Source of the DNA: Patescibacteria group bacterium | GTDB lineage: Bacteria > Patescibacteriota > Minisyncoccia > UBA6257 > UBA11618 | Length of the DNA: 35,338 nt | Assembly: GCA_043822345.1 (NCBI GenBank) | Contig: JBDRBW010000022.1 | Location: forward strand, 1-35,338 | Direction of reading: 5' to 3' | Part shown: positions 751-35,308 of the stretch, one piece after another | How the letters are laid out: every line of letters starts with the position of its first letter | Numbering within the stretch: position 1 is the stretch's first letter | The notes under the pieces: model-generated | Seen by the model: the letters and a program-made list of their open reading frames with translations, nothing else | What the model was told of the DNA's origin: nothing | Databases searched by the model: none | Position numbers and translations under genes: made by a program

Positions 751-862
751 GTCATCTCGACCGAAACGAAGTGAAGTGGAGAGATCTCATTGCTTTCAAT
801 AATACCTAATCCATGAGATTTCTCCATTACGGCCGCTTCTAGCGGCCTCCAGTCGAAATGAC
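751..862. repeat. GTCAT/ATGAC REP-like inverted doublet
   Basis: GTCATCTCGACCGAA...GGAGAGATCTCAT (751-790) faces ATGAGATTTCTCC...GTCGAAATGAC (813-862). A degenerate third unit lies at 879-908. Confidence 0.85.
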
Positions 863-912
863 AGATAGAATATAATCTATGAGATTTCTTCACTTTATTC
901 AGAATAACAAAC

Positions 913-1635
913 TCAAAGCGTCCATCTGGAAGTAAGTAGCACCACCGCCAACAAAACCAAAAACACCATCAAATCCTTGATTATCATCTTTTGCCGCAAC
1001 TTCCCCTTAAAATACCCCGCCAGCAAATCAACCATTAATAACGAAACTAAAATCATCAAATTAGCCGAGGCCAAAAACCCAATCGGCAGCCAGCTCACCA
1101 CCCACAACAACTCGGCGGCAATCAAGGTCAAAACACCACCCACCACGCCCACCTTATCATCAGGCGCCCTTACCGTCCGCAATAAATCCCCGAACAACAA
1201 ATAAAAAACGACCAGAAAACCTCCCCATTTCAAAAAAAACAGCGAGGACTTATCTAATAAAAAGAAGTTTAAAAACCCCAGATAAAGCAAAGAAATATCC
1301 AGAAAAGCTCGCCACCCCTTCCGCCTCACCAAAATCAGATTTTTCAACCCCAGAATTACAAAAAACAAAAACGCTAGAAATACTACCGCTATATAGCTAA
1401 AAGTCACCGTCGTCGTCCAAAAAGCCAAAATCAAAAACACCGAAAATGGCCGTAACATCGCTACCGGATTAAAAAACGGCTTAAAATACAACCACATCAC
1501 CCCCACTACCAACGCCGCCGCCGCCGGCAAGCTGTGGCCATAGCCAAACCAAAGCAATAACAAGCCGAAAATCGCCGCCTTAAACGCTAACTGTGATATT
1601 TGATTTTTCCAAACCGACTTTAACTTTGCTACCAT
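913..1635 (-). CDS. Multi-pass membrane protein, unknown function
   Basis: 240 aa with about 8 hydrophobic segments. The 5' end overlaps the 3' end of clpB by 56 nt, so the start is uncertain. Confidence 0.7.
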   Translation of the reverse strand: MVAKLKSVWKNQISQLAFKAAIFGLLLLWFGYGHSLPAAAALVVGVMWLYFKPFFNPVAMLRPFSVFLILAFWTTTVTFSYIAVVFLAFLFFVILGLKNLILVRRKGWRAFLDISLLYLGFLNFFLLDKSSLFFLKWGGFLVVFYLLFGDLLRTVRAPDDKVGVVGGVLTLIAAELLWVVSWLPIGFLASANLMILVSLLMVDLLAGYFKGKLRQKMIIKDLMVFLVLLAVVLLTSRWTL

Positions 1636-4267
1636 TTTTAATTTGTCCTCTGATTATTTTATCGGCCAACTGGTCTAAAATAACCCGCTGAATCAGCCGT
1701 TTAATCGGCCGCACGCCGTAGTCGGGATCAAAACCATTTTCCACAATATATTTCTTCGCCGCGCTGTTAATAGTAACCTTAATATCCTTCTCCGCCAGCT
1801 TCTGCTTAGTCCTCTCTAGTTGAATATCAACAATCTTCCCGATATCTTTCTTGCGCAAAGAATTAAAGATAATAATATCATCCAACCGATTCAAGAACTC
1901 GGGGCGAAACCTTTCCTTCAACGACTGATGAACCCGCTCCCGAAACTGCTCCTCCTGTTCCCGCTGGCTCTCTTCTTCGCCGTTAGCCAAACCAAAGCCC
2001 AAGCTAGCCATCTCCTTAAAGTAACGACTGCCAACATTGGAGGTTAGAATAATAATAGAATTCTTGAAATTAGCCACCTTGCCCTTACTATCGGTTAAAC
2101 GGCCGTTATCCAGCATCTGTAATAGGATATTAAATACCTCGGGATGCGCCTTCTCCACTTCGTCAAATAAGATTAAGCTGTAAGGCCGATGGCGGACAAT
2201 CTCGGTCAACTGGCCGCCTTCCTCAAAACCAACATAACCGGGCGGCGAACCCACCAAGCGGGAAACGGAATGGCGTTCCATATATTCCGACATATCAATC
2301 CGCACCAGCGCTTTTTCGTCATTAAACATAAACTCCGCCAAGGTCTTGGCTAACTCGGTTTTGCCCACGCCCGTCGGCCCCAAAAACATAAACGAGCCCA
2401 GCGGCTGGTCGTCATCGGATAGGCCGGCGCGGCTGCGCCGCAAGGCGTTGGCGATAACGCCAATCGCCTCTTTTTGACCGACCACCCGCTTTGCCAGCAC
2501 CTCCTCAATACGGGTCAATTTCTCCGCCTCTGTCTCCAGCATCTTAGTAATCGGAATACCGGTCCAATGCGAAACCACCGAGGCCACATCCTCCTCGTCC
2601 ACCACTTCTTTGATAAACTTTTTTCTCTTGCCACTCGTCATCCCGACTCCCTCTGTCATCCCGGGCTTGACCCGGGATCCACTACCTTTCTCTCCCCCAA
2701 AATACTTCTTCTCAAACGCCTGATACTCATTCTCCGCCACCGGCAATTGCCCATAAATCAGCTGGGAAACCTTCTCCAAATCACCCTCCCGCTCGGCAAT
2801 CTCCGCTTCTCTTTTTAAATCATCAATCTTGCGCCGCAAATTATGCAGATTATCAAAGGCGATTTTCTCCGCATGCCATTGGGCGGAAATCTCGTCATTT
2901 TTACTCTTCAGCTCTCCCAGTTGTTTATTTAATTCATCTAAACGATTAACTTTTCCGTGTCCTTCCTTCATCAACGCCGACCGCTCAATCTCCAGCCGCA
3001 TAATCTCTTTTCTTATTTTTTCTATCTCTTGAGGGGTGGTCTCGGTCTCCAGACGCCGCGCCGCCGCCGCCTCATCCATCAAATCCACCGCTTTATCGGG
3101 CAAAAAACGGTCAGTGATATAACGCGCCGACAGATTAACCGCCGCCACTAGCGCCTCATCGCTAATCCGTAGACCATGATGAATCTCATACTTTTCCTTT
3201 AAGCCGCGCAAAATCGCCATCGTATCCTCCAACGACGGCTCATCTACCACAATCGGCTGAAAGCGACGTTCCAAGGCGGCGTCCTTTTCTATATACCGCT
3301 GATATTCCTTAAGTGTAGTAGCGCCAATGGCGTGCAGTTCGCCGCGCGCCAACGAGGGCTTAAGCAAATTAGAAGCATCAATCGCCCCCTCAGCCGCGCC
3401 TGCGCCCACTAGGGTGTGTAATTCGTCAATAAATAAAATAATCTTCCCCGCCGAGTTTTTCACCTCATTAATAAACGCCTTCAACCGATCTTCAAACTCG
3501 CCGCGAAATTTAGTGCCAGCAATTAGTGAACCAATATCCAACATTACCAACTCTCTGTCTTTTAATGTTTCCGGCACGTCGCCAGCCACAATCTTCTGCG
3601 CCAAGCCCTCGGCAATCGCCGTCTTACCAACGCCCGGCTCGCCAATCAACACCGGATTGTTTTTCGTCCGCCGCGAAAGTACCTGTATTACACGGCGCAA
3701 CTCTTCCTCTCTACCAATAACCGGATCCAACTTACTATCCCGCGCCTGCTGAGTAAGATTAACGGCATATTTATCCAGCACCTGCATTTTACTCTCCGGC
3801 ATCTCGTCGGTTACCCGCATTGAACCCCGCAGGTGCGCCAATGTCCGCAATAAATTCTCTCGACGTATGCCAAATTTCGCCAACAAAGCTTGGGCTTCTG
3901 ATTGAATATCAACCATTGCCAACAATAAATGCTCACAGGAAATGAATTCGTCATGCTGAGCTAAGGCAATTTTTGCCGCCCGATCCAACAACATCACAAT
4001 TTCTTGTGAAAGATAAAGCTGACCAATCGCCGAGTTGGCAAAAATCTTTGGTAACCGCTCCAGTTCCAATTGCAATTCTTGGCGCAAATTATCCAAATTA
4101 ACGCCCGACTTGGCCAGCATCGGCTGGACTAGTGATTGGCCATCGCCCAATAAACTATGCAATAAATGAAGCGCCTTAAACTCGCCGTGATGGCGTTGCG
4201 CCGCCAAATCCTGCGCGCTCTGCAAGGCCTCTTGAGCTTTCATTGTAAAACGATGAAAGTTATTCAT
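1580..4267 (-). CDS. clpB: ATP-dependent chaperone ClpB
   Basis: Clp N-domain, NBD1 [13 protein letters not shown], coiled-coil M domain, NBD2 [19 protein letters not shown] and [10 protein letters not shown]. Confidence 0.95.
2636..2681. repeat. REP-like palindrome inserted in-frame in clpB
   Basis: Partial CGTCATCCCGAC plus GTCATCCCGGGCTTGACCCGGGATCCA. Translated as [15 protein letters not shown] after the M domain. Confidence 0.85.
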
Positions 4268-4273
4268 AATCGT

Positions 4274-4300
4274 GTCATCCCGGACTCGATCCGGGATCTA
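4274..4300. repeat. REP-like palindrome just upstream of the clpB start
   Basis: GTCATCCCGGACTCGATCCGGGATCTA, same subtype as 2655-2681 and 17276-17302. Confidence 0.85.
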
Positions 4301-4353
4301 TATAAGTCCTATGTTACTGAAAAATAGAGAAAGTGTCAAATATTTCTCAAATT

Positions 4354-4460
4354 CCAGTGATCAGTTACCAGTGACCAGTCAAATTCCAATTATTAAAATT
4401 CCATTGGTCACTTATTCCATTGGTCACTGATTGGTCACTGAAAAATGGCCACTGGTCACT
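4354..4460. repeat. Short-unit (CAGTGAC/GTCACTG) inverted repeat array
   Basis: CCAGTGATCAGTTACCAGTGACCAGTC faces several TTGGTCACT/CTGGTCACT units and abuts the iscS stop. Confidence 0.75.
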
Positions 4461-4461: not shown

Positions 4462-5976
4462 TTAGTTAAACCTATTCCTCAAAACTTCCAAAACATAATC
4501 AATCTCTTCTTGGGTAGTAAATTTCCCCAACGAAAAACGGATACTACTCGTCGGCCGATCGTCTCCCCCTGTGTTGCTCGTCATTCTGAGCTTTCGCGAA
4601 GAATCTTTCGCTTGTCGAAGGGCTTCAATTACATGCGACGGCTGGGCCGCCCGCGCCGAACAGGCCGAGACCGTGGAAGCCGCCACCCCCGCCAAATCCA
4701 GTTCAATTATCAAATCCTGCGCCGGCCTCCCCGGAAAATAGATATTCAAATTATTAGGGACCCGTCTCATGTTCGTCATCTCGAGCTTGTCGAGAGATCT
4801 CATCCGCGCCCCTTTCTCATTAAACCAACCATTCACTTCTATATCAGGCACAATTTTCTTCAACTCCTGCCAAAAATAATCCCGTAAACCGCCAATTCTC
4901 TTTACTTCTTCAGTTCGCGCCGCCTCCGCCAGCTCTACCGCCTTACCAAAGCCAACCACCCCTGCCACATTCTCCGTCCCCGCCCGCAGGCCCCACTCCT
5001 GACCACCGCCGGTAATAATAGGATTTAAGATTTTTTTCGGATTTCGCGCGAATAGTGCCCCAACTCCCTTCGGCCCATAAATTTTGTGCGCCGACAAAGT
5101 CATCAAATCAACCCCCAACTCCTCCACATCGCACTTTAGAAATTGGAACGCTTGAACAGCGTCTGTGTGGAAAAGAGGATACATAACGCCGTCATCTCGA
5201 GCCTGTCGCCCGCCCGCCTCGCTATGCAAGGCATTGCGGGCAGGAGAGATCTCAATGATTTGTTTTTTGGACGATGATGAGATTTCTCCACTCCTCCGCC
5301 AGCTGGCGGATTCGGTCGAAATGACACTCTTCTTTTTTACTATTCCATCTCTAAACTCTCCAATCATCCTCCCAATCTCCGCAATCGGCTGTACCACCCC
5401 AATCTCCGAATTCACCATTCCAATAGAAACCAACACTGTCCGCTCATTCAACTCCTCCTTCAACTTCTTCAAACCCACCAACCCTCCTCTGTCCACCGGC
5501 AAATAAACCACCTCCACCCCCCAATTCTCCTCCAAATCCTTACAGGTCGCCAAAACCGAAGAGTGTTCAATCTTAGATGTAATTAAGCGTAGAGGCGCAT
5601 TCGCATGCTGTTTTTCAGAATGTCTCGGAGGCGAGTTTGCTTGGTCCCGCTCCGCGGGAAACTCGCCGAGAGCCAAGCGGCTGGTTTTCGCTGGAAAAAC
5701 CAGACCGCGGTTCTGAAAAATAGCTGCGAATGCGCCTCGGAGCGCCAAATTATTTGCCTCACTCGCCGACCCGGTAAAAATCACCTCATTATATTTGCAA
5801 CCCAACGCCCGCGCTATCTGCTCATGCGCCGTAAACACCGCCCGCGACGCTTCCTGTCCAAAAGAGTGCACCGACCCCGGATTGCCAAAAATTTCACCAC
5901 AATAAGACCGCATCGCCTTTTCCACTTCCTTATCCATCGGCGTTGTCGCCGCATAATCCAAGTAGACACGTTTCAT
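4462..5976 (-). CDS. iscS: Cysteine desulfurase (IscS/NifS family) with four in-frame repeat insertions
   Basis: YLDYAATTP, GNPGSVH, HTDAVQ, SAHKIYGPKG (PLP lysine), RAGTEN and SACS. It is 504 aa versus roughly 380-400 aa typical for the family. Confidence 0.9.
   Translation of the reverse strand: MKRVYLDYAATTPMDKEVEKAMRSYCGEIFGNPGSVHSFGQEASRAVFTAHEQIARALGCKYNEVIFTGSASEANNLALRGAFAAIFQNRGLVFPAKTSRLALGEFPAERDQANSPPRHSEKQHANAPLRLITSKIEHSSVLATCKDLEENWGVEVVYLPVDRGGLVGLKKLKEELNERTVLVSIGMVNSEIGVVQPIAEIGRMIGEFRDGIVKKKSVISTESASWRRSGEISSSSKKQIIEISPARNALHSEAGGRQARDDGVMYPLFHTDAVQAFQFLKCDVEELGVDLMTLSAHKIYGPKGVGALFARNPKKILNPIITGGGQEWGLRAGTENVAGVVGFGKAVELAEAARTEEVKRIGGLRDYFWQELKKIVPDIEVNGWFNEKGARMRSLDKLEMTNMRRVPNNLNIYFPGRPAQDLIIELDLAGVAASTVSACSARAAQPSHVIEALRQAKDSSRKLRMTSNTGGDDRPTSSIRFSLGKFTTQEEIDYVLEVLRNRFN
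4579..4606. repeat. REP-like unit in-frame in iscS
   Basis: CGTCATTCTGAGCTTTCGCGAAGAATCT, translated as DSSRKLRMT. Confidence 0.8.
4774..4803. repeat. REP-like unit in-frame in iscS
   Basis: CGTCATCTCGAGCTTGTCGAGAGATCTCAT, translated as MRSLDKLEMT. Confidence 0.85.
5191..5325. repeat. REP-like doublet (135 bp) in-frame in iscS, with nested palindromes
   Basis: GTCATCTCGA...GTCGAAATGAC. Contains a nested 36 bp unit at 5209-5244 and the perfect palindrome TCCGCCAGCTGGCGGA at 5295-5310. Confidence 0.85.
5592..5738. repeat. Structured multi-stem element, copy A (in-frame in iscS)
   Basis: Arms GAGGCGCATTCGCA...TGCGAATGCGCCTC. Core nearly identical to 30727-30825. Length 147 bp. Confidence 0.85.
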
Positions 5977-7593: not shown

Positions 7594-7685
7594 GTCATCT
7601 CGACCGTGGTGGAGAGATCTCATAAACTTTGCAACGCACAAAGCACTGAGATTTCTCGACTTCGTTTCACTTCGCTCGAAATGAC
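7594..7685. repeat. REP-like inverted doublet in a predicted 5' UTR
   Basis: GTCATCTCGACCGTGGTGGAGAGATCTCAT ... TGAGATTTCTCGACTTCG...CTCGAAATGAC. Confidence 0.85.
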
Positions 7686-7785: not shown

Positions 7786-8295
7786 ATGGATAATCTACTA
7801 TTCAAAACACCCGCTGGTATTCAGTTATCGCCTGAACAGGTGGTTACCGAAATCATCCAGTTTATGCAGGCCGATACCAAACGACCCTACAAAATCATCA
7901 TCGGCACCGATTCTGAAGAAATAGGCAACCTCAGCGCCGACTTTGTAACCGCCATCGTTGTCCACCGCATCGGCAATGGCGGCCGTTATTTTTGGCGCCG
8001 CGCCATCATCGGCAAAATGCATACCTTAAGAAACCGCATCTGGCAGGAAGTGCTTACCTCTCTTGATGTCGCCAAGGACTTTCTGGGCGTTGCTAAGCAA
8101 TTTAACCTACCTCACTTTGACTTTGAAATTCACATTGACGTCGGCGAAAACGGCAAAACTCGCGACATGATTCAGGAATTAGTCGGCGTCATCCGCGCCA
8201 ACAACTTTGAAGCCCGCACCAAGCCCTACAGCTACGCCGCTAGCTCTGTCGCCGATAGGCACAATAATAAACATTCGATACCGTCGTCATCCTGA
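7786..8295 (+). CDS. RNase H-like YkuK family protein
   Basis: IIIGTDS, TAIVVHRIGNGGRYF, EIHIDVGENGKT and KPYSYAASSVADRH. The TGA stop lies inside a REP unit. Confidence 0.85.
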   Translation: MDNLLFKTPAGIQLSPEQVVTEIIQFMQADTKRPYKIIIGTDSEEIGNLSADFVTAIVVHRIGNGGRYFWRRAIIGKMHTLRNRIWQEVLTSLDVAKDFLGVAKQFNLPHFDFEIHIDVGENGKTRDMIQELVGVIRANNFEARTKPYSYAASSVADRHNNKHSIPSSS

Positions 8296-8342
8296 GTGTT
8301 AACGAAGGATCTTTAAAGATTCTTCGCCTCGCTCAGAATGAC
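8285..8342. repeat. REP-like inverted doublet
   Basis: CGTCATCCTGAG...GAAGGATCT-TTAA-AGATTCTTCG...CTCAGAATGAC. Confidence 0.85.
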
Positions 8343-8927: not shown

Positions 8928-11027
8928 ATGAGAAAGAGAAAAATCAAAAGGAGCGAAAAAGAACTGGAGCTGAAAAAGGAAAAAGAAAGCCACGTTTCCG
9001 TAGAAATTAAAAAGAGTGTCCTCGCTGTATTGTTAGTTGGCGCCGCTATCGTCCTGATGCTCGCTAGCTTTAATCAGGCCGGCGTGGTGGGTGGGTTTTT
9101 GTATGAATCACTTTCCGCCGTTTTCGGCATCGGCTACTTCCTCTTGCCACTAGTAGCTTTTATCATCGCCGCCGTCTTTCTGCTCGCTCATGAGATAAAA
9201 TTTCTTAGCCCAACCTTTATCGGCGCCATCGTTTTAATTCTCTCCTCGCTCGGATTTATTGATATCGTCTTCCCCGGCAAAGCCGGTTTCACCGGCAACG
9301 GCTTGGGATTGATAGAGTCCCTGTTCGGCAACATCGCCTCGTTAGTAATAGTAGGCGCCCTTATTATTGGCGCGCTCGTTCTCACACTCAACATCCCTCT
9401 TAAAATTAAACGCAAGCCGAAAAAAGAAAAGCTCGGCGAGGAAGAAATCACTATTAAAGAACCGGAAGAAGGCAAGATTGTGAACAGTGATAAAAAAGAA
9501 GATGCTCTGGAAACAGCCGCTGAAAAAACACTGGCATCAGAATCAGAAAAAGAAAGTTTGTTAGAAAAAATAAAGCGACCTAAATTATGTAACTATCAAC
9601 CACCACCGCTAAGCTTGTTAAAATCGAACATTGAAAAGCCGAGCGCCGGCGACTTGCGGGCCAACGCCAACATCATCAAAAGAACTTTGGATAGTTTTAA
9701 TATCCCCGTTGAAATGAGTGAGGTTAACATCGGCCCTAAAGTTACCCGCTACTCTCTCAAACCAGCGGAGGGTATCAAACTAGCCCGCATCACCGCCCTT
9801 AACTCCGACCTAGCGCTCGCCTTAGCCGCCCATCCCCTACGCATCGAAGCGCCCATTCCCGGCAAATCATTGGTTGGCATCGAGGTGCCCAACAAAACCG
9901 CCGCTATGGTCCGGCTAGGCAGTTTAATGTCCTATCCCGAATTCACCAAGACCGGCCCTGTGAGTTTTGTATTAGGCAGAGATGTCAGCGGCAATCCCAT
10001 CGCCGCCCACATTGATAAAATGCCCCACCTTTTAGTTTGCGGCTCCACCGGATCAGGAAAATCCATCCTCATCCATTCACTTTTAATTTCCCTCCTCTAT
10101 AAAAATTCTCCCGAAACCCTGAAATTAGTATTAATCGACCCCAAACGAGTAGAGCTTTCGATTTATAACGAAATCCCCCACCTTATCGCCCCCGTCGTCA
10201 CCGAAGGCAAAAAAGCAGTCAATGTTTTCCGCTGGGCAATTCAGGAAATGGAAAGACGTTATGACATCCTGCTTAAAGCCGGCGCCAGAGATATCGCCCG
10301 TTATAACAGTAACGCCAAAGGTGAACAGTTACCCTACTTATTACTAGTAGTTGATGAATTAGCTGACTTAATGTCCTCTTATGGCCGCGAAGTAGAGACG
10401 GCTATCGTCCGCCTTGCCCAAATGGCGCGGGCCACCGGCATTCATTTGGTGTTGGCCACTCAACGACCATCGGTTGAAGTTATTACCGGCCTCATTAAGG
10501 CCAACATCACCTCCCGCGTCGCTTTGCAAGTCGCTAGTCAAGTTGACTCCCGCACCATTTTGGATATGGGCGGCGCCGAAAAACTACTCGGCGGTGGTGA
10601 TATGCTTTTCATATCTTCCGAATTTTCCAAACCAAAAAGAATTCAGGGTGCCTTTATTTCCGAAGATGAAGTTGGCAAAGTAACTGACTTTATTCGAGAA
10701 CACAATAAACCTAACGCCGAAAACGATAACGACACCCGTCATCTTGAGCGAAACGAAGTGGAGTCGAAAGATCTCATCAACGACCCACTCAACTTCAACT
10801 CTTTCTCCTCCAACGAAGATGATGATCTCTACGACGAAGCGGTGGAAACCGTCCGCCTGGCCAAAAAGGCCTCTGCTTCGCTCCTCCAGCGCCGCCTTAA
10901 AGTTGGTTACGCCCGCGCCGCCCGCCTCTTGGATTTGATGGAAGAAAACGGCCTGATCGGTCCCGGAGAAGGCGCTAAACCCCGAGAAGTTTTTGATGTT
11001 GGACAAAGTAATTCTGAACTGATATGA
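8928..11027 (+). CDS. ftsK: DNA translocase FtsK/SpoIIIE
   Basis: N-terminal TM segments, RIEAPIPGK, GSTGSGKS, IDPKRVEL, VDELADLM, ATQRPS and gamma domain SASLLQRRLKVGYARAAR. Confidence 0.95.
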   Translation: MRKRKIKRSEKELELKKEKESHVSVEIKKSVLAVLLVGAAIVLMLASFNQAGVVGGFLYESLSAVFGIGYFLLPLVAFIIAAVFLLAHEIKFLSPTFIGAIVLILSSLGFIDIVFPGKAGFTGNGLGLIESLFGNIASLVIVGALIIGALVLTLNIPLKIKRKPKKEKLGEEEITIKEPEEGKIVNSDKKEDALETAAEKTLASESEKESLLEKIKRPKLCNYQPPPLSLLKSNIEKPSAGDLRANANIIKRTLDSFNIPVEMSEVNIGPKVTRYSLKPAEGIKLARITALNSDLALALAAHPLRIEAPIPGKSLVGIEVPNKTAAMVRLGSLMSYPEFTKTGPVSFVLGRDVSGNPIAAHIDKMPHLLVCGSTGSGKSILIHSLLISLLYKNSPETLKLVLIDPKRVELSIYNEIPHLIAPVVTEGKKAVNVFRWAIQEMERRYDILLKAGARDIARYNSNAKGEQLPYLLLVVDELADLMSSYGREVETAIVRLAQMARATGIHLVLATQRPSVEVITGLIKANITSRVALQVASQVDSRTILDMGGAEKLLGGGDMLFISSEFSKPKRIQGAFISEDEVGKVTDFIREHNKPNAENDNDTRHLERNEVESKDLINDPLNFNSFSSNEDDDLYDEAVETVRLAKKASASLLQRRLKVGYARAARLLDLMEENGLIGPGEGAKPREVFDVGQSNSELI
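10737..10777. repeat. REP-like unit in-frame in the ftsK motor-gamma linker
   Basis: CGTCATCTTGAGCGAAACGAAGTGGAGTCGAAAGATCTCAT, translated as RHLERNEVESKDLI. Confidence 0.85.
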
Positions 11028-11042: not shown

Positions 11043-11738
11043 ATGGAACACGCCACCTTCAAGGAATTTCTTCAGGAGTATATCGACATCAAGGGTCTAA
11101 GTTTAAAAAAACTTTCTGATAGCACCGGCGTTCCCGAAAGATATATTGAGTCCCTGTTAGAAAGTAACTATGACGCCCTGCCTCCCGCTCCCTATATTCG
11201 CGGCTACATCCTCAAACTCTCCACTGTTTTAGATTTTGATAAAGAAGAAATGTGGCGTCTCTATAAAAAAGAAAGCGGTTATCACTCATCTGGCGCCTTT
11301 GATAAACTGCCCAGCAACCGCTTTGCTATTAAAAAATTAAACAAAAAACTAGCCGTCTACGTTGGTCTCGGTCTCATACTAATCATCTATCTTGGTTTAA
11401 ACTTCAATAAATTATTGGGGGCTCCGGAATTGGAAATTACCTATCCTTTGTCCGCCAATCTCATCGTCCAAGAGCCACTGGTTTCTATTGAGGGATTAAC
11501 TGACGCCGGCAATAAAGTAACCATCAATGGTGAAGAATTGTTTGTTGATAAAGGCGGCCGCTTCCAAAAAGAATATGCTCTCGACCCCGGCCTGAATACT
11601 CTGGATATAGTCGCCAGCAAATTTCTAGGCAAAGAAATAACCACCACTAAAAAAATTATCTATCAGAAACCAATAATCGAAAAAGTCGAAGAAAATATTA
11701 ACGTCATTCCCGACGAGATCGGGAATCCAACACAATAA
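11043..11738 (+). CDS. RodZ-like protein (Xre-type HTH, TM helix, Ig-like domain)
   Basis: LSLKKLSDSTGVPERYIESL...LPPAPYIRGYI, one TM helix and a beta-rich C-terminus. Lies between ftsK and recA. Confidence 0.75.
   Translation: MEHATFKEFLQEYIDIKGLSLKKLSDSTGVPERYIESLLESNYDALPPAPYIRGYILKLSTVLDFDKEEMWRLYKKESGYHSSGAFDKLPSNRFAIKKLNKKLAVYVGLGLILIIYLGLNFNKLLGAPELEITYPLSANLIVQEPLVSIEGLTDAGNKVTINGEELFVDKGGRFQKEYALDPGLNTLDIVASKFLGKEITTTKKIIYQKPIIEKVEENINVIPDEIGNPTQ
11702..11729. repeat. REP-like unit forming the C-terminus of the RodZ-like protein
   Basis: CGTCATTCCCGACGAGATCGGGAATCCA, translated as VIPDEIGNP. Confidence 0.8.
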
Positions 11739-14773: not shown

Positions 14774-15658
14774 TTATTTTTTTGCCAACTTATAAAAATT
14801 CCTAAAAAGTTCCGCTACTAAAATCGGTCCGGTGCCGCCGGGGGTAGGAGTATAAAACTCTAGATGCTGGATGCTGGATGCTGGATTCTGGATTAGGTCT
14901 GGTGGATAACCGAAATCAATTACGCCCGCGCCGTCTTTCAGCCAATCTGGATTAATTAAATTAGCTTGTCCTACTCCGCTAATCACCAAATCCGCATCTT
15001 TTAATTCCTCCTCAAGATTTTTCGTTTCTATATCAACTTCCTTAATTGAAAATTGAAAATTGAAAATTGAAAATTGGGAAAGCCACTTCACGATTGGCTT
15101 TCCAACTAAAAACCCCTTCGCCCCCACCACCGCCACAATCAACCCATCGCCGTCGTCATTCTGCCTGCCCGCCACAGCTTTAGCGTCGGCGGGAGCGGAG
15201 GCCGCAATAAGCGGCCGTAGCCGAAGAATCTCATCATCTAACTTCTGCTCAATAATATATTTAATAACATCCCCCACTACCATTACCACCGGTGCTTCAA
15301 CGCCAGCTTCGCCTGTTAAATTATCAACGTCTTTTTGAGAATCTAATTTTAATAAAACTTTATCCCGATCAATTTTTTTCGGTAGAGGTAGTTGCACTAT
15401 TATCCCTCCAACTCGCTCATCGTCACTCAATCTCTCCGCGACGCTTTCTAGTTCTTTTTGTCTAATATTTATATCTAACTCGTATACTTTAAAATCTACC
15501 CCCAACTCCTCCGCCACTCGCTGTTTTTGTTTAATAAAAGACAACGAAGCCGGATCGTCTCCTACTAAAACAACCACCAAACTCTTGTTGGGCTTGGGTT
15601 GTTTTTTTAATCCCTCAACAATCCCCTGCGCAATTTTTCTGCCATCTACCTTGATCAT
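14774..15658 (-). CDS. folD: Bifunctional methylenetetrahydrofolate dehydrogenase/cyclohydrolase with repeat insertions
   Basis: VDGRKIA, LVGDDPAS, GIIVQLPLP, KDVD, LVGKP, VIDFG and TPTPGGTGP. Adjacent to glyA. Confidence 0.9.
   Translation of the reverse strand: MIKVDGRKIAQGIVEGLKKQPKPNKSLVVVLVGDDPASLSFIKQKQRVAEELGVDFKVYELDINIRQKELESVAERLSDDERVGGIIVQLPLPKKIDRDKVLLKLDSQKDVDNLTGEAGVEAPVVMVVGDVIKYIIEQKLDDEILRLRPLIAASAPADAKAVAGRQNDDGDGLIVAVVGAKGFLVGKPIVKWLSQFSIFNFQFSIKEVDIETKNLEEELKDADLVISGVGQANLINPDWLKDGAGVIDFGYPPDLIQNPASSIQHLEFYTPTPGGTGPILVAELFRNFYKLAKK
14863..14894. repeat. Heptamer tandem repeat (GATGCTG) in folD
   Basis: GATGCTG x3 plus GATTCTG and GATT, encoding IQNPASSIQHL. Confidence 0.8.
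15044..15076. repeat. Heptamer tandem repeat (AATTGAA x4.7) in folD
   Basis: Perfect tandem array encoding QFSIFNFQFSI. Confidence 0.85.
15154..15234. repeat. REP-like unit in-frame in folD with a nested 30 bp unit
   Basis: CGTCATTCTG[CCTGCCCGCC...GGCGGG]AGCGGAGGCCGC...CGAAGAATCTCAT. Confidence 0.85.
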
Positions 15659-17126: not shown

Positions 17127-17259
17127 CTTTGAATTACGAAACGTCCCATTTGTCATTTCGAGCGTAACGCAGTGAAGTCGAGAAATCTCATAAACTATAC
17201 ATTATTTCAAATCACTGAGATTCTTCGACAAGCTCAGAATGACGTTTCGTAATTCAAAG
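17127..17259. mobile_element. MITE-like composite: REP doublet within 19 bp perfect outer inverted repeats
   Basis: CTTTGAATTACGAAACGTC / GACGTTTCGTAATTCAAAG. 17214-17259 is identical over 46 bp to 34755-34800. Confidence 0.75.
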
Positions 17260-17275: not shown

Positions 17276-17356
17276 GTCATCCCCGACTCGATCGGGGATC
17301 CATTACGTTATTGTATTAGATCCCGGACAGTCGCCTACGGCGACTTCCGGGATGAC
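17276..17356. repeat. REP-like inverted doublet (GTCATCCC subtype)
   Basis: GTCATCCCCGACTCGATCGGGGATCCA ... AGATCCCGGA...TCCGGGATGAC. Confidence 0.85.
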
Positions 17357-18429: not shown

Positions 18430-18520
18430 GTCATTTCGAGCTTGTCGAGAAATCTCATCGTTCATATTTAATCAATGATTACGAGATCCCTCGACTTCGC
18501 TCTGCTTCGCTCGGGATGAC
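18430..18520. repeat. REP-like inverted doublet overlapping the dedA 3' end
   Basis: GTCATTTCGAGCTTGTCGAGAAATCTCAT ... GAGATCCCTCGAC...CTCGGGATGAC, supplying the C-terminus VSSRAKQSEVEGSRNH. Confidence 0.85.
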
Positions 18521-27072: not shown

Positions 27073-27550
27073 CGTCATCTCGACCGAAGTGGAGAGATCT
27101 CATTAATGTGGACGCATTGAGATCTTTCGACTCCGCTTCGCTTCGCTCAAGATGACAAGATGACAGAAGTAGTCATCTCGACCGAAGTGGAGAGATCTCA
27201 TTAATTCCAATCATCAGATAAATCCTTAAATTCGGGATTATTTTTCTTAATTAGCTCTATCTTTTTCTTTCTTGACCACCTTTTAAGTTGTTTTTCTCTA
27301 GAAATCGCATCATACGGATTATCAAAAACTTCATAGTGTATAACCTTATTTAAATTATATTTTTCAGTAAAACCTTTAACTTGCTTTTGTTTGTGCTGCC
27401 AAGCTCTGTTAGAAATATCGTTAGTAACTCCTATATAGGATGTCGTATTCCACTTGTTCATCATTATGTAAACATAAAGATTTTTGCTCATAGTGATGTT
27501 GATGAGATTTCTCGACTTCACTCACTTCGTTCGTTTCGCTCGAAATGACG
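27073..27550. mobile_element. Candidate REP-flanked GIY-YIG cassette
   Basis: REP units at 27073-27103, 27118-27156, 27172-27201 and 27502-27550. The last two face each other around the nuclease gene. Confidence 0.65.
27201..27491 (-). CDS. Small stand-alone GIY-YIG nuclease family protein
   Basis: LYVYIM...YIGVTND...R..QH...GFTEKY...YEVF...AISREKQLKRWSR..K..LI...NP. Start set at MSKNLY. Confidence 0.92.
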   Translation of the reverse strand: MSKNLYVYIMMNKWNTTSYIGVTNDISNRAWQHKQKQVKGFTEKYNLNKVIHYEVFDNPYDAISREKQLKRWSRKKKIELIKKNNPEFKDLSDDWN

Positions 27551-27608
27551 GGATTGAAAATTCAGTCATTAGAGTTTTATTCGAAATTCAAAATTAGAAA
27601 TTCGAAAT

Positions 27609-28334: not shown

Positions 28335-28889
28335 ATGTTAGAGGACGAGTATAAAATAATAAAACGCGCCCAACGAGGTGATCAGGAGTATTTCGGCCAA
28401 TTGTACGACCACTATACTCCCCAAATCTACCGCTTCGTCTTCTTTAAGGTCGGTCACCAACAGGAGGCCGAAGATCTGACGCACGAGATATTTCTCAACG
28501 CCTGGAAGAATATTGATAATTTCACCTATCGAGGACACCCCTTTTCCAGTTGGCTGTACCAAATAGCCCGCAATCGCATTATTGATTACTACCGCGCGAA
28601 AAAAGATACCATTTCCCTAGATGATGTAAAAGAGATAATTCCCGAAACCGGCAATAGTATAGAAGAACGGCTGGACATCGGCTATGATATGGAAAAAATC
28701 AAGATGGCGATGCGACAGCTAAACGGAGACCAGCAGAACGTTATCATTCTTCGTTTTATTGAAGAACTATCCCCCGCCGAAATCGCCAAGGCAATGGATA
28801 AAAGCGAGGGCGCCGTCCGCCTCATCCAACACCGAGCAATTAAAAATCTTCGCGTCATTCTGAACACAAGTGAAGAATCTTATGAATAA
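28335..28889 (+). CDS. ECF RNA polymerase sigma factor
   Basis: Region 2 AEDLTHEIF...FSSWLYQIARNRIIDYYR and region 4 LSPAEIAKAMDKSEGAVRLIQHRA. Confidence 0.93.
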   Translation: MLEDEYKIIKRAQRGDQEYFGQLYDHYTPQIYRFVFFKVGHQQEAEDLTHEIFLNAWKNIDNFTYRGHPFSSWLYQIARNRIIDYYRAKKDTISLDDVKEIIPETGNSIEERLDIGYDMEKIKMAMRQLNGDQQNVIILRFIEELSPAEIAKAMDKSEGAVRLIQHRAIKNLRVILNTSEESYE

Positions 28890-30700: not shown

Positions 30701-30851
30701 ACAACGGTAGTGGATATAGTTCGAAGGAATGTCTCGGAGGCGAATTTGCTTGGTCCCGAGCTTGCGAGGGAAATTCGCCGAGAGCCAAGCGGCTGATTTT
30801 CGCCGGAAAAATCAGACCGCGGTTCCTGAGAGCTATATCCACTACCGTTGT
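30701..30851. repeat. Structured multi-stem element, copy B
   Basis: Perfect 19 bp arms ACAACGGTAGTGGATATAG / CTATATCCACTACCGTTGT. Core matches copy A. Lies 7 nt after the rny stop. Confidence 0.85.
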
Positions 30852-30858: not shown

Positions 30859-32382
30859 CTACCTAGCGTATTCCACAGCGCGCATTTCGCGAATCACATT
30901 TACCTTGACCTCCCCCGGAAACTTCAATTCCGCCTGAATCTTGCCCGAAATATCCTTCGCCAACTGCAAGGCCGCGAAATCATCAATCTTCTCCGGAATA
31001 ACAAAGATTCGCACCTCCCGTCCGCCGGAGAGCGCATAGGCGGTCTTAACGCCGTCAAATGATTGGGCGATTTTCTCCAAACCTTCTAAACGTTTCAAAT
31101 AATTTTCCAAACTGTCGCGGCGCGCTCCCGGCCGGGCGCCCGATATCACATCAGCCGCCGAAACCACAAACGCTTCGGGGATGGCGCATGGATAGTCGTC
31201 ATGGTGCGCCTCCATCGCCTGAATTACCCTTTCATTAACATTATATTTCTTCAATAATTTTCTACCCAGCTCCACGTGCGTTCCCTCGGCCTCGTGGTCA
31301 ATCGCCTTGCCAATATCATGCACCAACGCCCCCTTCTTGGCCACCTCCACATCTAAGCCCAACTCACTGGCAATCATACCGGCAATATGGGCCATCTCTA
31401 TGGAATGCAATAAAACATTTTGTCCGTAACTGGTGCGAAAATTGAGCCGTCCCAGCAAATGAACAATTTCTTTGGGAAAATCAACAATCCCCAATTCATA
31501 AACCGCCTCCTCGCCAACCTCCTGCATCCGCTTGTCCAACTCCCGCTTCGCCTCTTCAACTTTTTCCTCAATCTTCGCCGGCTGAATACGGCCGTCCTTA
31601 ATCAGTTTTCCCAAAGCCAGCTTCGCCGTTTCTCGGCGTAGCGGGTCAAAAGAAGAAATCATAATACTCTCCGGTGTTTCGTCTACCACAATTTCTACGC
31701 CAGTTAACCGCTCCAAAGTCCTGATATTTCTCCCCTCACGACCGATAATCTTGCCCTTCAAATCCTCATCGGGCAAAACAAAATTCGTTGTCGTTAGCTC
31801 GGCAATATGAGAGCGGGCATAGCGCTGTAACGCGGTGGTAATAATCTCTACACTCTTTTTTTCAATTTCCTCCACTCGCTCCTTCTCCATCTTTTTCACC
31901 GCCTCCATTAAATCCTTGTTATACTCCTCCTTGGCTAGCTTAATCACATAATCCCGCGCCTCTTCTATGCCCATGCCAGCCGCCTGCTCCAATCGTTGGG
32001 CCGCCTGCTTATACAAACGACTCGTTTCGGCTCTGGTCTCATTAATCCGAGAAAGTTCATCATTTAAATCTTTCTGCTTAACAACTGCATCTTGCGCCTG
32101 TTTGTCCAACCCCTCCTCTTTTTTCAGTAGTCGTTCCTCCGCCTTGTCCAAGCGCCGCTTTCTTTCTATTTCCTCTTTTTTAACTTCATCAAAAATCCCA
32201 GCCGACTTATCCTTGGCTTTTAAAACAATATCCTGCGCCTCTCGTTTGGCGTCTTCAACCTTCGCCTTTATTTTTTGCTCTAGTGAATTAGCCTTGTTTA
32301 CGGCTATCGCCTGACGAATAAAGTAACCAGCAACCAAGCCAAAAGCAACACTGCCCACCAGCAAAAGTAAGTTTTGATCCAT
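30859..32382 (-). CDS. rny: Ribonuclease Y
   Basis: TM helix and coiled coil, KH domain KGKIIGREGRNIR, HD domain RTSYGQNVL.HS...HDIGK, and SGARPGAR. Confidence 0.96.
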   Translation of the reverse strand: MDQNLLLLVGSVAFGLVAGYFIRQAIAVNKANSLEQKIKAKVEDAKREAQDIVLKAKDKSAGIFDEVKKEEIERKRRLDKAEERLLKKEEGLDKQAQDAVVKQKDLNDELSRINETRAETSRLYKQAAQRLEQAAGMGIEEARDYVIKLAKEEYNKDLMEAVKKMEKERVEEIEKKSVEIITTALQRYARSHIAELTTTNFVLPDEDLKGKIIGREGRNIRTLERLTGVEIVVDETPESIMISSFDPLRRETAKLALGKLIKDGRIQPAKIEEKVEEAKRELDKRMQEVGEEAVYELGIVDFPKEIVHLLGRLNFRTSYGQNVLLHSIEMAHIAGMIASELGLDVEVAKKGALVHDIGKAIDHEAEGTHVELGRKLLKKYNVNERVIQAMEAHHDDYPCAIPEAFVVSAADVISGARPGARRDSLENYLKRLEGLEKIAQSFDGVKTAYALSGGREVRIFVIPEKIDDFAALQLAKDISGKIQAELKFPGEVKVNVIREMRAVEYAR

Positions 32383-32458: not shown

Positions 32459-34069
32459 ATGTCAAAGCCCCACAAACAAACAATTACTTTATTGATTCTA
32501 GACGGCTGGGGCATTGGCGCCAACAACCCCACCAACCCCATCCACATCGCCCAGCCCAAAAACATCCAACAGATAAAAAACCATTATCTAGGAGGTAATT
32601 TACAGGCCTCCGGTATCGCCGTCGGCCTACCATGGAATGAAGAAGGCAATAGCGAGGTCGGCCACCTCACCATCGGCGCCGGTAAAACTATTTATCAAAA
32701 CTACCCCCGCATCACCCTTGCTATCCAAAGTGGTGAGTTCGCTAAAAATAAAATTTTTCTTGATGCCTTTGAGCATGCCAAAAAAAATAATTCTTCTTTG
32801 CACCTAATTGGCTTATTATCCGAAGGCAACGTTCACGCTTCTCTAACGCATCTTACTGCTCTTATTGATTTAGCAAAAAAACACCAGGTTGCCCAAATTA
32901 AACTTGACCTGATTAGCGACGGCCGCGACAGCCCTCCGCAATCGGTTTTACAACTCCTAGAAAAACTTAAATCTTCAGGCGTCATCCTGAGCGCAAGCGA
33001 AGGACCTTCGAAAGATTCTTCGGTTCCACCTCAGAATGACAGTAGCATAACGATCGCCTCCCTCTCCGGCCGCTACTTTGCTATGGATCGCGACCGCCAC
33101 TGGGACCGCGCCCAAGAATACTACAATACCCTTTTGGGTAAAAAAGAATCTGACGGCAATATTACCAAACACATAAAAACTCAATACGAACACGGTCTTA
33201 ATGACCAATACCTCGAACCTATCAGTATCGACCCCAAAAACAACGCTATTAAGAACAATGACGCCGTCATCTTTTTCAACTTCCGCGAGGACCGAATGCG
33301 CCAGCTAACAGCGATCTTCCTTAACCCTGACTTTAAAGAATTTGCCACCGCGCCGATCAAAAATCTCCACATCGCCACCATGGTCCAGTATTCCGACCAA
33401 TTTAAAACCAATGTCGCCTTTCCTCCGGAAAAAATTGCTCTGCCACTCGGCAAGGTGTTAGCCGACAATAATAAATTACAATTAAGAGTCGCTGAGACAG
33501 AAAAGTATGCTCACGTAACCTACTTCTTCAACGGCCTTAAAGATAAGCCGGCAAAAAATGAGTACCGCATTCTCATCCCCTCTAAAAACATCGTTCGCCA
33601 CGAAGAACATCCAGAAATGATGGCCGCCGAAATTACCGACCGAGTAATACAAGCTATTGAAGAGGGCGAGATGGACTTTATTCTAGCCAACCTCGCCAAC
33701 CCCGATATGATTGCCCATACCGGCGACTTCAACGCCACCGTTACCGCTATTAAAGTGGTTGATGAACAGGTCGGCAAAATTCTCCAAGCCACCATCGCCC
33801 GCGACGCCGTTTTAATTATCACCTCCGATCACGGCAACGCCGAAAGAATGCTAGATCCGCTTACCGGCCACATAGAGACCAAACACGACACCAGTCCCGT
33901 CCCCTTTTATTTAGTCGGTAAGCGATTTGAAAGAAAATCGGGCACCGAATGGCACCCGGCTATGCCAGTTGGCGTCCTCTCTGACATCGCCCCCACCATT
34001 CTTGACTTAATGAAAATCCCCAAACCCGCCGAAATGACCGGCGAAAGTTTATTAAAACGGCTTTTATAA
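32459..34069 (+). CDS. gpmI: 2,3-bisphosphoglycerate-independent phosphoglycerate mutase
   Basis: ILDGWG, GNSEVGH, DGRD, GRYFAMDRD, AETEKYAHVTYFFNG and TSDHGNAE. Confidence 0.96.
   Translation: MSKPHKQTITLLILDGWGIGANNPTNPIHIAQPKNIQQIKNHYLGGNLQASGIAVGLPWNEEGNSEVGHLTIGAGKTIYQNYPRITLAIQSGEFAKNKIFLDAFEHAKKNNSSLHLIGLLSEGNVHASLTHLTALIDLAKKHQVAQIKLDLISDGRDSPPQSVLQLLEKLKSSGVILSASEGPSKDSSVPPQNDSSITIASLSGRYFAMDRDRHWDRAQEYYNTLLGKKESDGNITKHIKTQYEHGLNDQYLEPISIDPKNNAIKNNDAVIFFNFREDRMRQLTAIFLNPDFKEFATAPIKNLHIATMVQYSDQFKTNVAFPPEKIALPLGKVLADNNKLQLRVAETEKYAHVTYFFNGLKDKPAKNEYRILIPSKNIVRHEEHPEMMAAEITDRVIQAIEEGEMDFILANLANPDMIAHTGDFNATVTAIKVVDEQVGKILQATIARDAVLIITSDHGNAERMLDPLTGHIETKHDTSPVPFYLVGKRFERKSGTEWHPAMPVGVLSDIAPTILDLMKIPKPAEMTGESLLKRLL
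32981..33040. repeat. REP-like doublet (60 bp) in-frame in gpmI
   Basis: GTCATCCTGAGCGCAAGCGAAGGACCT...AGATTCTTCG...CTCAGAATGAC, translated as VILSASEGPSKDSSVPPQND. Confidence 0.88.
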
Positions 34070-34096: not shown

Positions 34097-34127
34097 TAAA
34101 CGGCTCACTTTGAAAGTGAGCCGTTTA
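34097..34127. terminator. Terminator-like hairpin after gpmI
   Basis: TAAACGGCTCACTT-TGA-AAGTGAGCCGTTTA. Confidence 0.65.
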
Positions 34128-34133
34128 TTGTTG

Positions 34134-34275
34134 CGTCATCCTGAACCGCAGTGAAGGATCCTATGTCATTGCGAGCGAAGCCGAGTCGGACTCGGCGAAG
34201 CGTGGCAATCTTAAAGATTCTTCGTACGACTTCCTCCTTCGCTTCTCGAGCTACGGAAGGACACGGCAGAATGAC
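34134..34275. repeat. Cluster of three REP-like units of different subtypes
   Basis: CGTCATCCTGAAC..GGATCC (34134-34161), GTCATTGCGAG..GCAATCT (34165-34211) and AGATTCTTCG..CAGAATGAC (34215-34275). Confidence 0.8.
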
Positions 34276-34292: not shown

Positions 34293-34640
34293 CTAAGGAA
34301 AAACTCCGTACCACGGCTGTTCATTATTATCTCCAGACGGCCGGCAATAGTTGTAAATAGCTAAAAGAAAATCTCTAAAATCTCTAATTAAGCTCTGTTG
34401 ATACAAAGCGGCGGCTAATAATAACTGATCGATGAGATTACTTTGTTGAATAGCAGCTGTCAGTAAAAGGTTATCGATAGCTTCCGATTGAGCAATAGCG
34501 GCGTTGAGTAATTCTTGGTCGGTGGTGGGAGTTGTGATTTGCGCCCAAACAACTGATGAGAAACTTAAACTTACAACTAACACTAAAAACACAACACAGC
34601 ATGTCATTCTGAACGAAGTGAAGAATCTTGAGGTTTTCAT
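34293..34640 (-). CDS. Secreted orphan protein with 15 aa helical repeats
   Basis: Signal-peptide-like VVWA/Q and LLxAAIxQSxxID repeats. The N-terminus includes the REP unit at 34603-34628. Confidence 0.65.
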   Translation of the reverse strand: MKTSRFFTSFRMTCCVVFLVLVVSLSFSSVVWAQITTPTTDQELLNAAIAQSEAIDNLLLTAAIQQSNLIDQLLLAAALYQQSLIRDFRDFLLAIYNYCRPSGDNNEQPWYGVFP

Positions 34641-34656
34641 AAAACTATGTAGCCTG

Positions 34657-34800
34657 CTTTGAATTACGAAATGCCGGTTTCGTCATCTTGAGCGAACCCC
34701 GCACTTGATGCGGGGGAAGTCGAAAGATCTCATAATTATTGCATTACTGAAAGTACTGAGATTCTTCGACAAGCTCAGAATGACGTTTCGTAATTCAAAG
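34657..34800. mobile_element. MITE-like composite, second copy of 17127-17259
   Basis: CTTTGAATTACGAAA / TTTCGTAATTCAAAG arms around a REP doublet, with nested CCCCGCACTTGATGCGGGG at 34697-34715. Confidence 0.75.
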
Positions 34801-34817
34801 TATCCTAGTCAATGCCG

Positions 34818-35231
34818 CTAAAAGCTAACGCCCATATTCTGCAAGGCGCCTTGCAATGCATTAAGCTTGGTTTGATTGCTATTGAGAATATCTACAGCTG
34901 CCTGAAAAGCGCCGGTGCCACCCGTTCCTCCCGTGCCTGTTCCTCCCGTGCCTGTGCCACTACCCGCTTCCTCACAAGTACTTCCATCGCTGAATGTCCA
35001 AGTGCAACCAGCATAGCTGCCTTTTTGACAATAATGAGGATTCGCAAGATTTGGACTTAAACAAACACCTCCGCCAGTACAAGTTCCTGAACTAGTGAAA
35101 TCACCCATACAAGCTTTGGTGCCAGCCAACGCCAACAACCCATCAGACCAGTTTGAATAAACATACCAACTAGCGATTAAAACCACGACCACGACGACTA
35201 CAATGAGCCAAAAGATATTTTTATTTTTCAT
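34818..35231 (-). CDS. Membrane-anchored small Cys-rich protein with Gly/Thr linker
   Basis: MKNKNIFWLIVVVVVVVL TM helix, six Cys and GTGGT repeats. The longer ORF start lies inside a REP. Confidence 0.7.
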   Translation of the reverse strand: MKNKNIFWLIVVVVVVVLIASWYVYSNWSDGLLALAGTKACMGDFTSSGTCTGGGVCLSPNLANPHYCQKGSYAGCTWTFSDGSTCEEAGSGTGTGGTGTGGTGGTGAFQAAVDILNSNQTKLNALQGALQNMGVSF

Positions 35232-35243
35232 ACGCGCATTCGT

Positions 35244-35308
35244 GTCATTCTGAGCCACAGGCGAAGAATCTTTTTTAAGATCCTTCAGGCCTTGCCTTCA
35301 GGATGACG
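35244..35308. repeat. REP-like inverted doublet
   Basis: GTCATTCTGAGCCACAGGCGAAGAATCT ... AGATCCTTCAGG...TCAGGATGACG. Confidence 0.85.

Follow-up and report, generated by a model that had tools for sequence, protein, structure and literature searches.

The 35,338-nt contig JBDRBW010000022.1 of a Patescibacteria group bacterium (assembly GCA_043822345.1), taken whole and called the window here, carries a dense family of CGTC-tagged palindromic repeats together with ssn, a gene for a small GIY-YIG nuclease that stands between two inverted repeat units. We consider it probable that the units are single-stranded DNA (ssDNA) recognition sites of Ssn, that the unit-ssn-unit cassette is a selfish element carrying its own gene, and that the inverted pairs with outward-facing tags (tags-out pairs) and the single units are its gene-less derivatives. 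The window is one contig (C22) of an assembly of 520,449 bp in 27 contigs that is 77.5% complete.

Units were located with a strict pattern, GTC-AT-xyz...complement-AT-C-Y. It matched 37 times in the window, whereas 100 dinucleotide shuffles averaged 0.32 matches and never exceeded 2. Two of these matches (2637 and 27164) are truncated extra 5' arms before a full unit, leaving 35 distinct units, and one additional unit with a single mismatch (32981-33007) brings the complete units to 36, so that the roughly 37 counted in a first-pass annotation of the sequence proved right. Throughout the assembly the scan returned 306 matches, or 289 units once nested starts and rare arms were dropped. Since pattern searches and backwards controls were used in place of a covariance model, diverged copies are undercounted. 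Public-run contigs belonging to two or more studies contain several window units without a letter of difference (one run is possibly the source sample), which rules out an assembly artefact.

A unit consists, in this order, of a Y-GTC tag, a 5-bp arm AT-xyz, mostly a GA, a variable inner hairpin, a GA, the complementary arm and C-Y; the stem opens with complementary AT, the final CY forms a short unpaired tail, and total lengths run from 25 to 89 bp. GA stands on both sides after the 5-bp stem in 219 of the 289 units, giving a GA·GA mismatch. The GTC of the tag is invariant by design of the search, and the (C/T)GTCAT tag once claimed for all units applies to 237 of them, in which C or T precedes GTC. 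Eight 5-bp arms make up nearly all units (ATTCT, ATCCT, ATCCC, ATTTC, ATCTC, ATTCC, ATTGC and ATCTT), and these group into about four classes, namely YCT-GA (143 units), YTC-GA, TGC-GA (22 units) and YCC with either a mismatch or a perfect stem.

Given that the strict scan selects for pairing, the covariation test was rerun without imposed complementarity. Genome-wide, 223 of 235 matches are Watson-Crick paired at all three variable stem positions (shuffled mean 51.5, maximum 71 in 2000 shuffles), and an inner pair outside the selection pairs in 220 of 235 (shuffled mean 154.6, maximum 170); a backwards-sequence control returned a single match. Covariation is thus significant, and the stem arms change together as the first-pass annotation had described, with eight arm types rather than four; its TGCGA subtype exists, with only one of the 22 genomic copies lying in the window. 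Among 21 window units, 99.1% of stem cells are paired and four of six pairs change on both sides. This covariation represents a few compensated changes copied many times by inherited subtypes, not hundreds of events. Of 705 stem positions just 7 are G:T, in keeping with an element acting at the DNA level. Under a DNA energy model, single units taken in isolation have no folding advantage over shuffles (z -0.3 and 0.2), and the hairpin is deduced from covariation; long dimer hairpins, such as the single ssDNA hairpin into which the dimer at 751..862 folds (z -5.1), may compete with the hairpin of the unit.

Four GIY-YIG genes are present in the assembly, and two of them are bracketed by tags-out units. 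The window gene, ssn (27201..27491, minus strand), encodes a standalone single-domain protein of 96 aa that matches PF01541 only (E 3.8e-15). Its cassette has YTC-GA ends: an ATCTC unit (27172..27198, +) lies 2 bp off the stop codon as the downstream end, and an ATTTC unit (27505..27549, -) ends 13 bp ahead of the start codon as the upstream end. The second cassette (C8:28810-29100) has perfect-stem unit ends. In tblastn the window protein matched the N. gonorrhoeae SsnA homologue at E 7e-18 with 89% cover and 44.7% identity, inside the homology threshold of E < 1e-10 over > 75% of the length to Neisseria SsnA, which was run in reverse with the N. gonorrhoeae gene; the latter has seven NTS matches within 400 bp. 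The C8 protein is 56% identical to the same homologue. Residues Y8, Y19 and E66 of the window protein align with Y6, Y17 and E64 of Neisseria SsnA at identical spacing. Judged by sequence, the window gene is predicted to encode a bona fide Ssn-family GIY-YIG nuclease, and by analogy Ssn likely recognises the tag and hairpin of the units. The protein recognising tag plus hairpin whose existence the first-pass annotation had predicted accordingly has a candidate within the window itself. None of the three GIY-YIG proteins searched scored above cut-off in NCBIfam, a PDB sequence search gave a weak UPF0213 match only and no Ssn structure, and a phage collection held no Ssn match.

In Neisseria, SsnA binds the hairpin in single-stranded form alone, requires both the tag bases and the C that follows the stem, and cuts ssDNA a few bases 5' of the hairpin unit (Chenal et al., 2025, PMC11893778; statements from this source refer to parts of its text). 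The link between repeat and Ssn is already published there, with a mobile or domesticated NTS-ssnA-NTS element offered as a hypothesis only. The present system resembles Ssn/NTS in its gene of about 95 aa, its flanking oriented hairpins, the GTC tag, the AT stem, the C after the stem, the hundreds of dispersed copies and the Tyr/Tyr/Glu spacing (PMC11893778). It differs in that 275 of the 289 units miss the published SRM pattern, mostly through the GA·GA mismatch and long variable loops (PMC11893778). The 14 that match are all ATCCC/ATTCC perfect-stem units, as opposed to none of the 233 units in the other six arm types, and the majority would be classed as SRM-like variants rather than SRMs by the published definition. 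Further differences from the sections of that work used here (PMC11893778) are the coexistence of at least four stem classes in one genome, the intragenic share (48% here and 2% in ORFs for N. meningitidis NTS) and the density, which is 555 units per Mb of the 0.52-Mb assembly by our own strict pattern and at most 294 per Mb in the table of Chenal et al., values that derive from different patterns and are not strictly comparable. We regard the repeats as a dense variant of the known Ssn/CGTC system and not a new kind; new are the GA mismatch, the lineage, the density and the intragenic share.

The distribution of repeats and enzyme was surveyed with one pattern covering the GA classes, which has 214 matches in the present genome. 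Among 16 genomes of the same family, 14 have none and two have one. Of 300 further genomes from the class, 67 have repeats, and the present genome is the densest of the 301. Of the annotation's remark that this load is unexpected in a reduced genome of the Candidate Phyla Radiation (CPR), the exceptional density stands, whereas presence as such is not unexpected in the class. The only CPR genomes that a search of the table of Chenal et al. turned up (Saccharimonas and Nanosynbacter; three of four rows) show no ssn and no enrichment (PMC11893778).

Strong Ssn homologues (best E <= 1.7e-19, followed by a gap to 4e-13) were found in 31 of the 300 class genomes. At least five repeat matches are present in 24 of the 31 genomes with ssn compared to 14 of the 269 without, and at least one match in 28 of 31 compared to 39 of 269, counts in which kin are not independent. 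At 31 Ssn loci (30 best matches plus the C8 gene), tags-out units stand on both sides in 24 and on at least one side in 29; both cassette ends belong to the same class in 22 of those 24. When class labels are placed on the Ssn protein tree, ten changes suffice, with a mean of 18.1 for shuffled labels and none of 200 shuffles as low. Across GTDB, a flanking unit was present at 12 of 13 loci with strong Ssn homologues and at none of four with weak ones, one 17-residue match being left out. Homologues in Ignavibacteria, Gracilimonas, Bacteroidota and others likewise have GA-type units beside them, and the variant therefore extends beyond this group.

The copies are not fixed at orthologous sites, as empty sites exist both in family genomes and in a more distant pair. 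The latter comes from a single genus in another part of the class (G273 and G040; about 75-80% identical DNA, 59 and 10 matches). Each of the 12 sites compared carries an insert in G273 and lacks it in G040; away from the aligned site, a loose-pattern match lay in one long piece of G040. What fills the sites is mostly a whole tags-out pair plus additional flanking bases, and in one case the complete ssn cassette of about 600 bp. Young copies in another genome, G097, share about 20 nt of common flank beyond the tag.

In the present genome, neighbours at most 100 bp apart comprise 82 tags-out pairs, 14 tandem pairs and three tags-in pairs, and heterodimers are preferred (33 ATCCT/ATTCT pairs against three ATTCT/ATTCT). 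The two ends of dimers differ as cassette ends do, which supports their reading as gene-less derivatives. A tags-out partner lies within 150 bp of 191 of the 289 units, and the other 98 have none; the idea that these are decayed dimers was dropped, since partner remnants are near background (8 and 5 of 98, with backgrounds of 5.1% and 6.0%). Around 82 and 79 dimers there is no excess of direct repeats above shuffled pairings that would indicate target-site duplication, and a classical miniature inverted-repeat transposable element or insertion sequence derivative was rejected on this ground; for 124 single units direct repeats are marginally above control (mean 5.23 vs 5.11). G is depleted 5' of the tag, at 6-15% in positions -1 to -7 vs 21.5% in the background. 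Another tag occurs at most 40 nt upstream of 29 of the 289 units, where 9.1 are expected; by eye, six of the 29 are full neighbours and the remainder truncated arms. Intergenic units number 151 of 289 in about 16% of the genome, and their context tracks the background (102 tandem, 18 convergent and 13 divergent vs 349/58/57).

ORFs were our own calls of at least 120 aa, with some N-terminal cases possibly upstream of the true start. By these calls, 138 of the 289 units (48%) lie wholly inside ORFs, in frame and on both strands, in 67 of 428 ORFs. Within the window the figure is 12 of 36, which the first-pass annotation had not noticed, and the hosts are clpB, a cysteine desulfurase gene (four units), ftsK, an HTH_25 gene, folD, a VTT gene, an ECF sigma factor gene and gpmI. 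Outside the window 58 of 59 hosts were scanned and 50 have Pfam matches. They include nine aminoacyl-tRNA synthetase subunits, IF2, LepA, NusA, SecA, SecD, ribosomal proteins S2 and L25, GyrA, LigA, Pol I, TsaD, TsaE, MnmA, enolase, Mur ligases, alanine racemase, ParB, RecO and RecR, and many unit-bearing ORFs are essential. The most unit-laden ORF of the genome (L117, G000:C2:4735-6840, 701 aa) has nine in-frame units and no Pfam match at 1e-8. Seven other class genomes, examined in their element-rich stretches, had intragenic shares of 2/65, 12/52, 0/12, 3/12, 4/6, 0/11 and 1/5; next to the well-sampled ones among them, the present genome has a high share.

The cysteine desulfurase gene (4462-5976, -) illustrates how such copies sit in a conserved protein. 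An ATTCT unit at 4580..4606 (+) gives a 12-aa insert missing from all eight same-family orthologues covering the site, an ATCTC unit at 4775..4800 (+) gives an insert of about 14-17 aa with the unit-derived peptide in none of nine, and a heterodimer at 5191..5325 (5191-5252 +, 5280-5325 -) gives an insert of about 50 aa missing from nine of nine, all of them in frame. H138, D272, Q275, K298 and C439, which we take to be catalytic or pyridoxal phosphate-binding, are invariant in the alignment. An AlphaFold model keeps the core (predicted TM score 0.77), with the inserts as segments of low confidence (222-262, 387-402 and 461-470), which stems partly from missing alignment rows. A metagenome scan for close relatives of this gene returned only loci of 25-46% identity. 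In gpmI, which encodes the phosphoglycerate mutase iPGM, an in-frame heterodimer at 32981..33040 (ATCCT 32981-33007, +, the unit with one mismatch; ATTCT 33013-33040, -) corresponds to an insert missing from nine of nine same-family orthologues, which are about 17-23 aa shorter there.

From the anatomy, the cassette, the association with the enzyme, the presence/absence pattern and the imprecise boundaries we infer a possible route of insertion. Ssn would gain access where DNA is single-stranded, as at the replication fork, in repair gaps or in incoming DNA, and its cuts would fall immediately 5' of every tag, hence on opposite strands at the two outer ends of a tags-out pair. A copy might then be pasted elsewhere imprecisely by host repair or by recombination at microhomologies, with no transposase involved, in a process that could carry some flank along and favour DNA that is poor in G 5' of the tag. 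Each stem class would likely derive from its own Ssn, some of which may since have been lost or left unassembled. In-frame copies in tolerant loops likely survived as translated inserts, and others were likely purged. A wider joint reading is possible, though somewhat less likely than not, and we offer it tentatively: the cassette of about 400 bp would be an autonomous transposase-free mobile element, several of which, each with its own enzyme and stem code, colonised the lineage in turn and left peptides in about one sixth of the larger proteins; the GC-clamped hairpins described below would parasitise unit stems; a large GA-mismatch branch would be invisible to the published SRM search; and the protein invasion would be the heaviest by a palindromic repeat found on record.

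Several observations weigh against a mobile Ssn element. The Ssn tree is weakly supported, with one of 28 branches starred, and the YCT-GA and perfect-stem classes cluster on it individually while YTC-GA and TGC-GA do not. Five repeat-rich genomes (97-100% complete, 32-297 matches) contain no Ssn-grade gene among 25 GIY-YIG matches; at one weaker GIY-YIG locus among the repeat-rich genomes without such a gene (L167), units do lie beside it. In the 77.5%-complete present assembly no cognate ssn was found for YCT-GA (143 of 289 units) or TGC-GA. The G273/G040 sites were picked from the richer genome at about 75-80% identity, so that each may be a gain in G273 or a loss in G040 and the junctions are approximate. 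Public DNA contigs from five runs show no clean unit removal among the joints listed, at low depth. A very recent burst is excluded, since 243 of the 289 unit sequences are distinct. Finally, GIY-YIG enzymes hydrolyse DNA and are not known to carry out strand transfer.

All three rival explanations that were weighed are nevertheless weaker than that of a mobile Ssn element. The system might be a domesticated one, in which the host keeps Ssn and its sites to control recombination of incoming or damaged ssDNA and selection drives the load. In N. meningitidis, DNA that bears NTS transforms less well because of SsnA (PMC11893778), both ssn genes of the present genome appear intact, and the hosts ligA, polA, gyrA, recO and recR echo the repair-gene bias described in part of the survey of Di Nocera et al. 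(2013, PMC3733652). However, host genes span all housekeeping classes, the intergenic context follows the background, the distribution is patchy with zero or one match in the 16 family genomes, repeat-rich genomes without ssn exist, and ComEC and DprA were not found with the queries used in the incomplete assembly, which is no proof of their absence. We consider domestication unlikely.

The spread of the units could also be due to a different enzyme, since lost or unassembled, be it an HUH transposase of RAYT/IS200 type or some unknown recombinase, with ssn as a passenger that only cuts. This is quite improbable in our view, for ssn is the gene present between unit ends at most loci examined, at one orthologous site the cassette as a whole is present in one genome and missing from the other, the present assembly (the only one surveyed for transposases) has no Y1_Tnp match, and Di Nocera et al. 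saw no transposase linked to CGTC repeats in the sections of their survey used here (PMC3733652); it would nonetheless accommodate an Ssn without known joining activity, a commonest class without ssn in a 77.5%-complete assembly and the five repeat-rich genomes without ssn. It is very improbable that the units are RNA regulatory hairpins, such as terminators or stabilisers, kept by selection at gene ends. REPs have been proposed as RNA elements (PMC3733652), and 151 units do crowd into the intergenic sixth or so of the genome, but convergent gene pairs are not enriched for units, 138 units lie inside ORFs on both strands, G:T pairs are almost lacking, orthologous sites of relatives are empty, Rfam matches in the window are five tRNAs only, and Neisseria SsnA ignores RNA according to the part of the work drawn on (PMC11893778).

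The assignment of the units to the CGTC-tagged REP (repetitive extragenic palindromic) sequences, already made in the first-pass annotation, is borne out by the tag, the AT-starting stem and the head-to-head dimers of that superfamily. As in CGTC REPs, an unpaired (C/T)GTC tag, an AT stem start and a short unpaired tail are present, head-to-head dimers predominate, heterodimers are preferred, copies occur within genes and there is no tyrosine transposase (Di Nocera et al., 2013, PMC3733652, in part). The CGTC-1 to -4 families have 8-9-bp stems and 4-5-nt loops (PMC3733652), unlike the mostly 5-bp stem plus mismatch here, and only the perfect-stem minority fits them; their top intragenic case, R. 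conorii, counts 28 entries (PMC3733652) against 138 units here. The Rickettsia palindromic elements (RPEs) RPE-4/6/7 offer another parallel, lying in frame in housekeeping genes and in exposed loops, with ATGAC-rich inserts longer than the core unit ('extended RPE-4') (PMC1166351, PMC3767692, both in part). R. felis carries 728 RPEs of all families in 1.49 Mb, 85 of them (12%) in ORFs (PMC1166351), against 48% for one superfamily here; unlike the RPEs, the present repeats belong to another phylum and have a directly linked ssn cassette (PMC1166351, PMC3767692). A literature search that left most subscription journals outside its reach returned no paper on these repeats in Patescibacteria or CPR.

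In REPIN/RAYT systems, inverted REP pairs with a GTAG tag form a non-autonomous unit whose partner is a REP-flanked gene for an HUH tyrosine transposase. The inverted pairs and the unit-flanked nuclease gene are alike here, while the partner is a GIY-YIG hydrolase and the tag is CGTC. Membership in REPIN/RAYT was rejected, given that no Y1 (HUH) transposase match (PF01797, Y1_Tnp) was found in the 77.5%-complete assembly.

The means by which CGTC REPs and palindromes of the Rickettsia type spread has been an open question, since the 2013 survey came without a transposase and the 2025 paper with a hypothesis only. We contend that the filled and empty sites, the shared asymmetry of ends and the clustering of subtypes on the enzyme tree support the idea of a mobile NTS-ssnA-NTS element and make it testable. 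The GA-mismatch classes widen the set of Ssn enzymes and targets, which is relevant to ssDNA tools, and because of these classes many genomes are overlooked in published tallies of SRMs. The present genome is also an example of the amount of inserted peptide that essential proteins of a reduced bacterium can tolerate.

The remaining units of the window occur as singles, tags-out inverted doublets and a mixed cluster, as the first-pass annotation had described. Intergenic heterodimers lie at 751..862 (ATCTC 751-787, +; ATTTC 816-862, -) and 7594..7685 (ATCTC 7594-7620, +; ATTTC 7649-7685, -), the latter spanned without differences by one contig of public run X3. The heterodimer at 8286..8342 (ATCCT 8286-8312, +; ATTCT 8317-8342, -) overlaps the end of the upstream gene, that at 18430..18520 (ATTTC 18430-18455, +; ATCCC 18484-18520, -) has its second unit in the 3' end of the VTT-domain gene, and another occupies 35244..35307 (ATTCT 35244-35271, +; ATCCT 35278-35307, -). 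An ATCCC/ATCCC perfect-stem dimer is intergenic at 17276..17356. The mixed cluster at 34135..34275 is a trimer (ATCCT 34135-34161, +; ATTGC 34165-34211, +; ATTCT 34215-34275, -), with a single ATTCT unit further on at 34603..34628 (+). Among units in genes, clpB (1580-4267, -) has an in-frame ATCCC perfect-stem unit at 2655-2680 (+) preceded by a truncated copy of tag and arm (2637-2654), and a single ATCCC unit stands immediately upstream of the clpB start (4274..4299, +). An ATCTT unit at 10738..10774 (+) is in frame in the ftsK linker from motor to gamma domain, an ATTCC perfect-stem unit at 11703..11728 (+) encodes part of the C-terminus of the HTH_25 protein upstream of recA, an ATTCT unit at 15155..15231 (+) is in frame in folD where its two domains join, and an ATTCT unit at 28854..28880 (+) lies at the 3' end of the ECF sigma factor gene.

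Two heterodimers, ATTTC/ATTCT at 17152..17243 and ATCTT/ATTCT at 34682..34784, lie inside outer inverted repeats of 17 and 15 bp, respectively. The dimers together with these repeats (17127-17259 and 34657-34800) have the 15-17-bp outer inverted repeat in common and are almost the same in their right halves, which suggests a composite element that may have been copied whole. A further heterodimer adjoins the ssn cassette (27074..27164; ATCTC 27074-27100, +; ATCTT 27120-27156, -; truncated arm 27157-27164), and cassette and dimer together lie within an AT-rich TTCGAAATT palindrome (about 26990-27065 and 27568-27610). Contigs of three runs link 27046 to 27568 via 17 other letters, with a side of 27 bases, and are probably copies of other organisms. 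Nearby, 25084-26943 encodes a predicted surface protein of 619 aa that is rich in cysteine, contains 83-bp repeats in its coding sequence and has no Pfam match; a paralogue of it follows the C8 ssn cassette.

Other repeat families share the genome. GC-clamped hairpins of 20-47 bp (CCYGCCYGC...GCRGG ends) form a second family with about 30 loci genome-wide; in the window they occupy 5209-5244 (36 bp, in the cysteine desulfurase dimer), 15164-15193 (30 bp, in the folD unit) and 15813-15851. They sit precisely, without duplication, in stems of CGTC units and other palindromes, often between the mismatch G and A. For 38 of 52 strand-level matches the genome also contains a version without the hairpin, and a backwards control gave 2 matches vs 55; contigs of four runs skip exactly 39 bp (15812-15850), with short sides that may come from other loci. 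The two remaining GIY-YIG genes, C8:21174 and C1:31605, were rejected as partners of the CGTC units, since no units flank them and BLAST finds them at most weakly similar to the Neisseria protein. These small genes, at the loci L002 (G000:C8:~20990-21740) and L004 (G000:C1:~31450-31850), are not Ssn-grade and each lies beside a tRNA-Ser gene; around L002, tRNA-like sequences are apparently interrupted near the anticodon by GC-clamped hairpin inserts. These two genes may drive another of the repeat families. A third palindromic family, of about 130 bp, is in frame in the cysteine desulfurase gene (about 5600-5725, aa ~86-128) and intergenic at 30720-30833, with more copies on C27, C17, C8, C9, C24 and C16; two orthologues from the family (L040 and L042) carry related inserts at the same loop. 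A short palindrome family, AAACGGCTCAC...GTGAGCCGTTT, occurs at 14196-14228 and 34097-34129, and its copies elsewhere also host the GC-clamped insert. Short degenerate tandem runs follow gene ends at 30-85 and 4360-4460, being TTAGGTGAA-like and GGTCACT/GTGACC-like.

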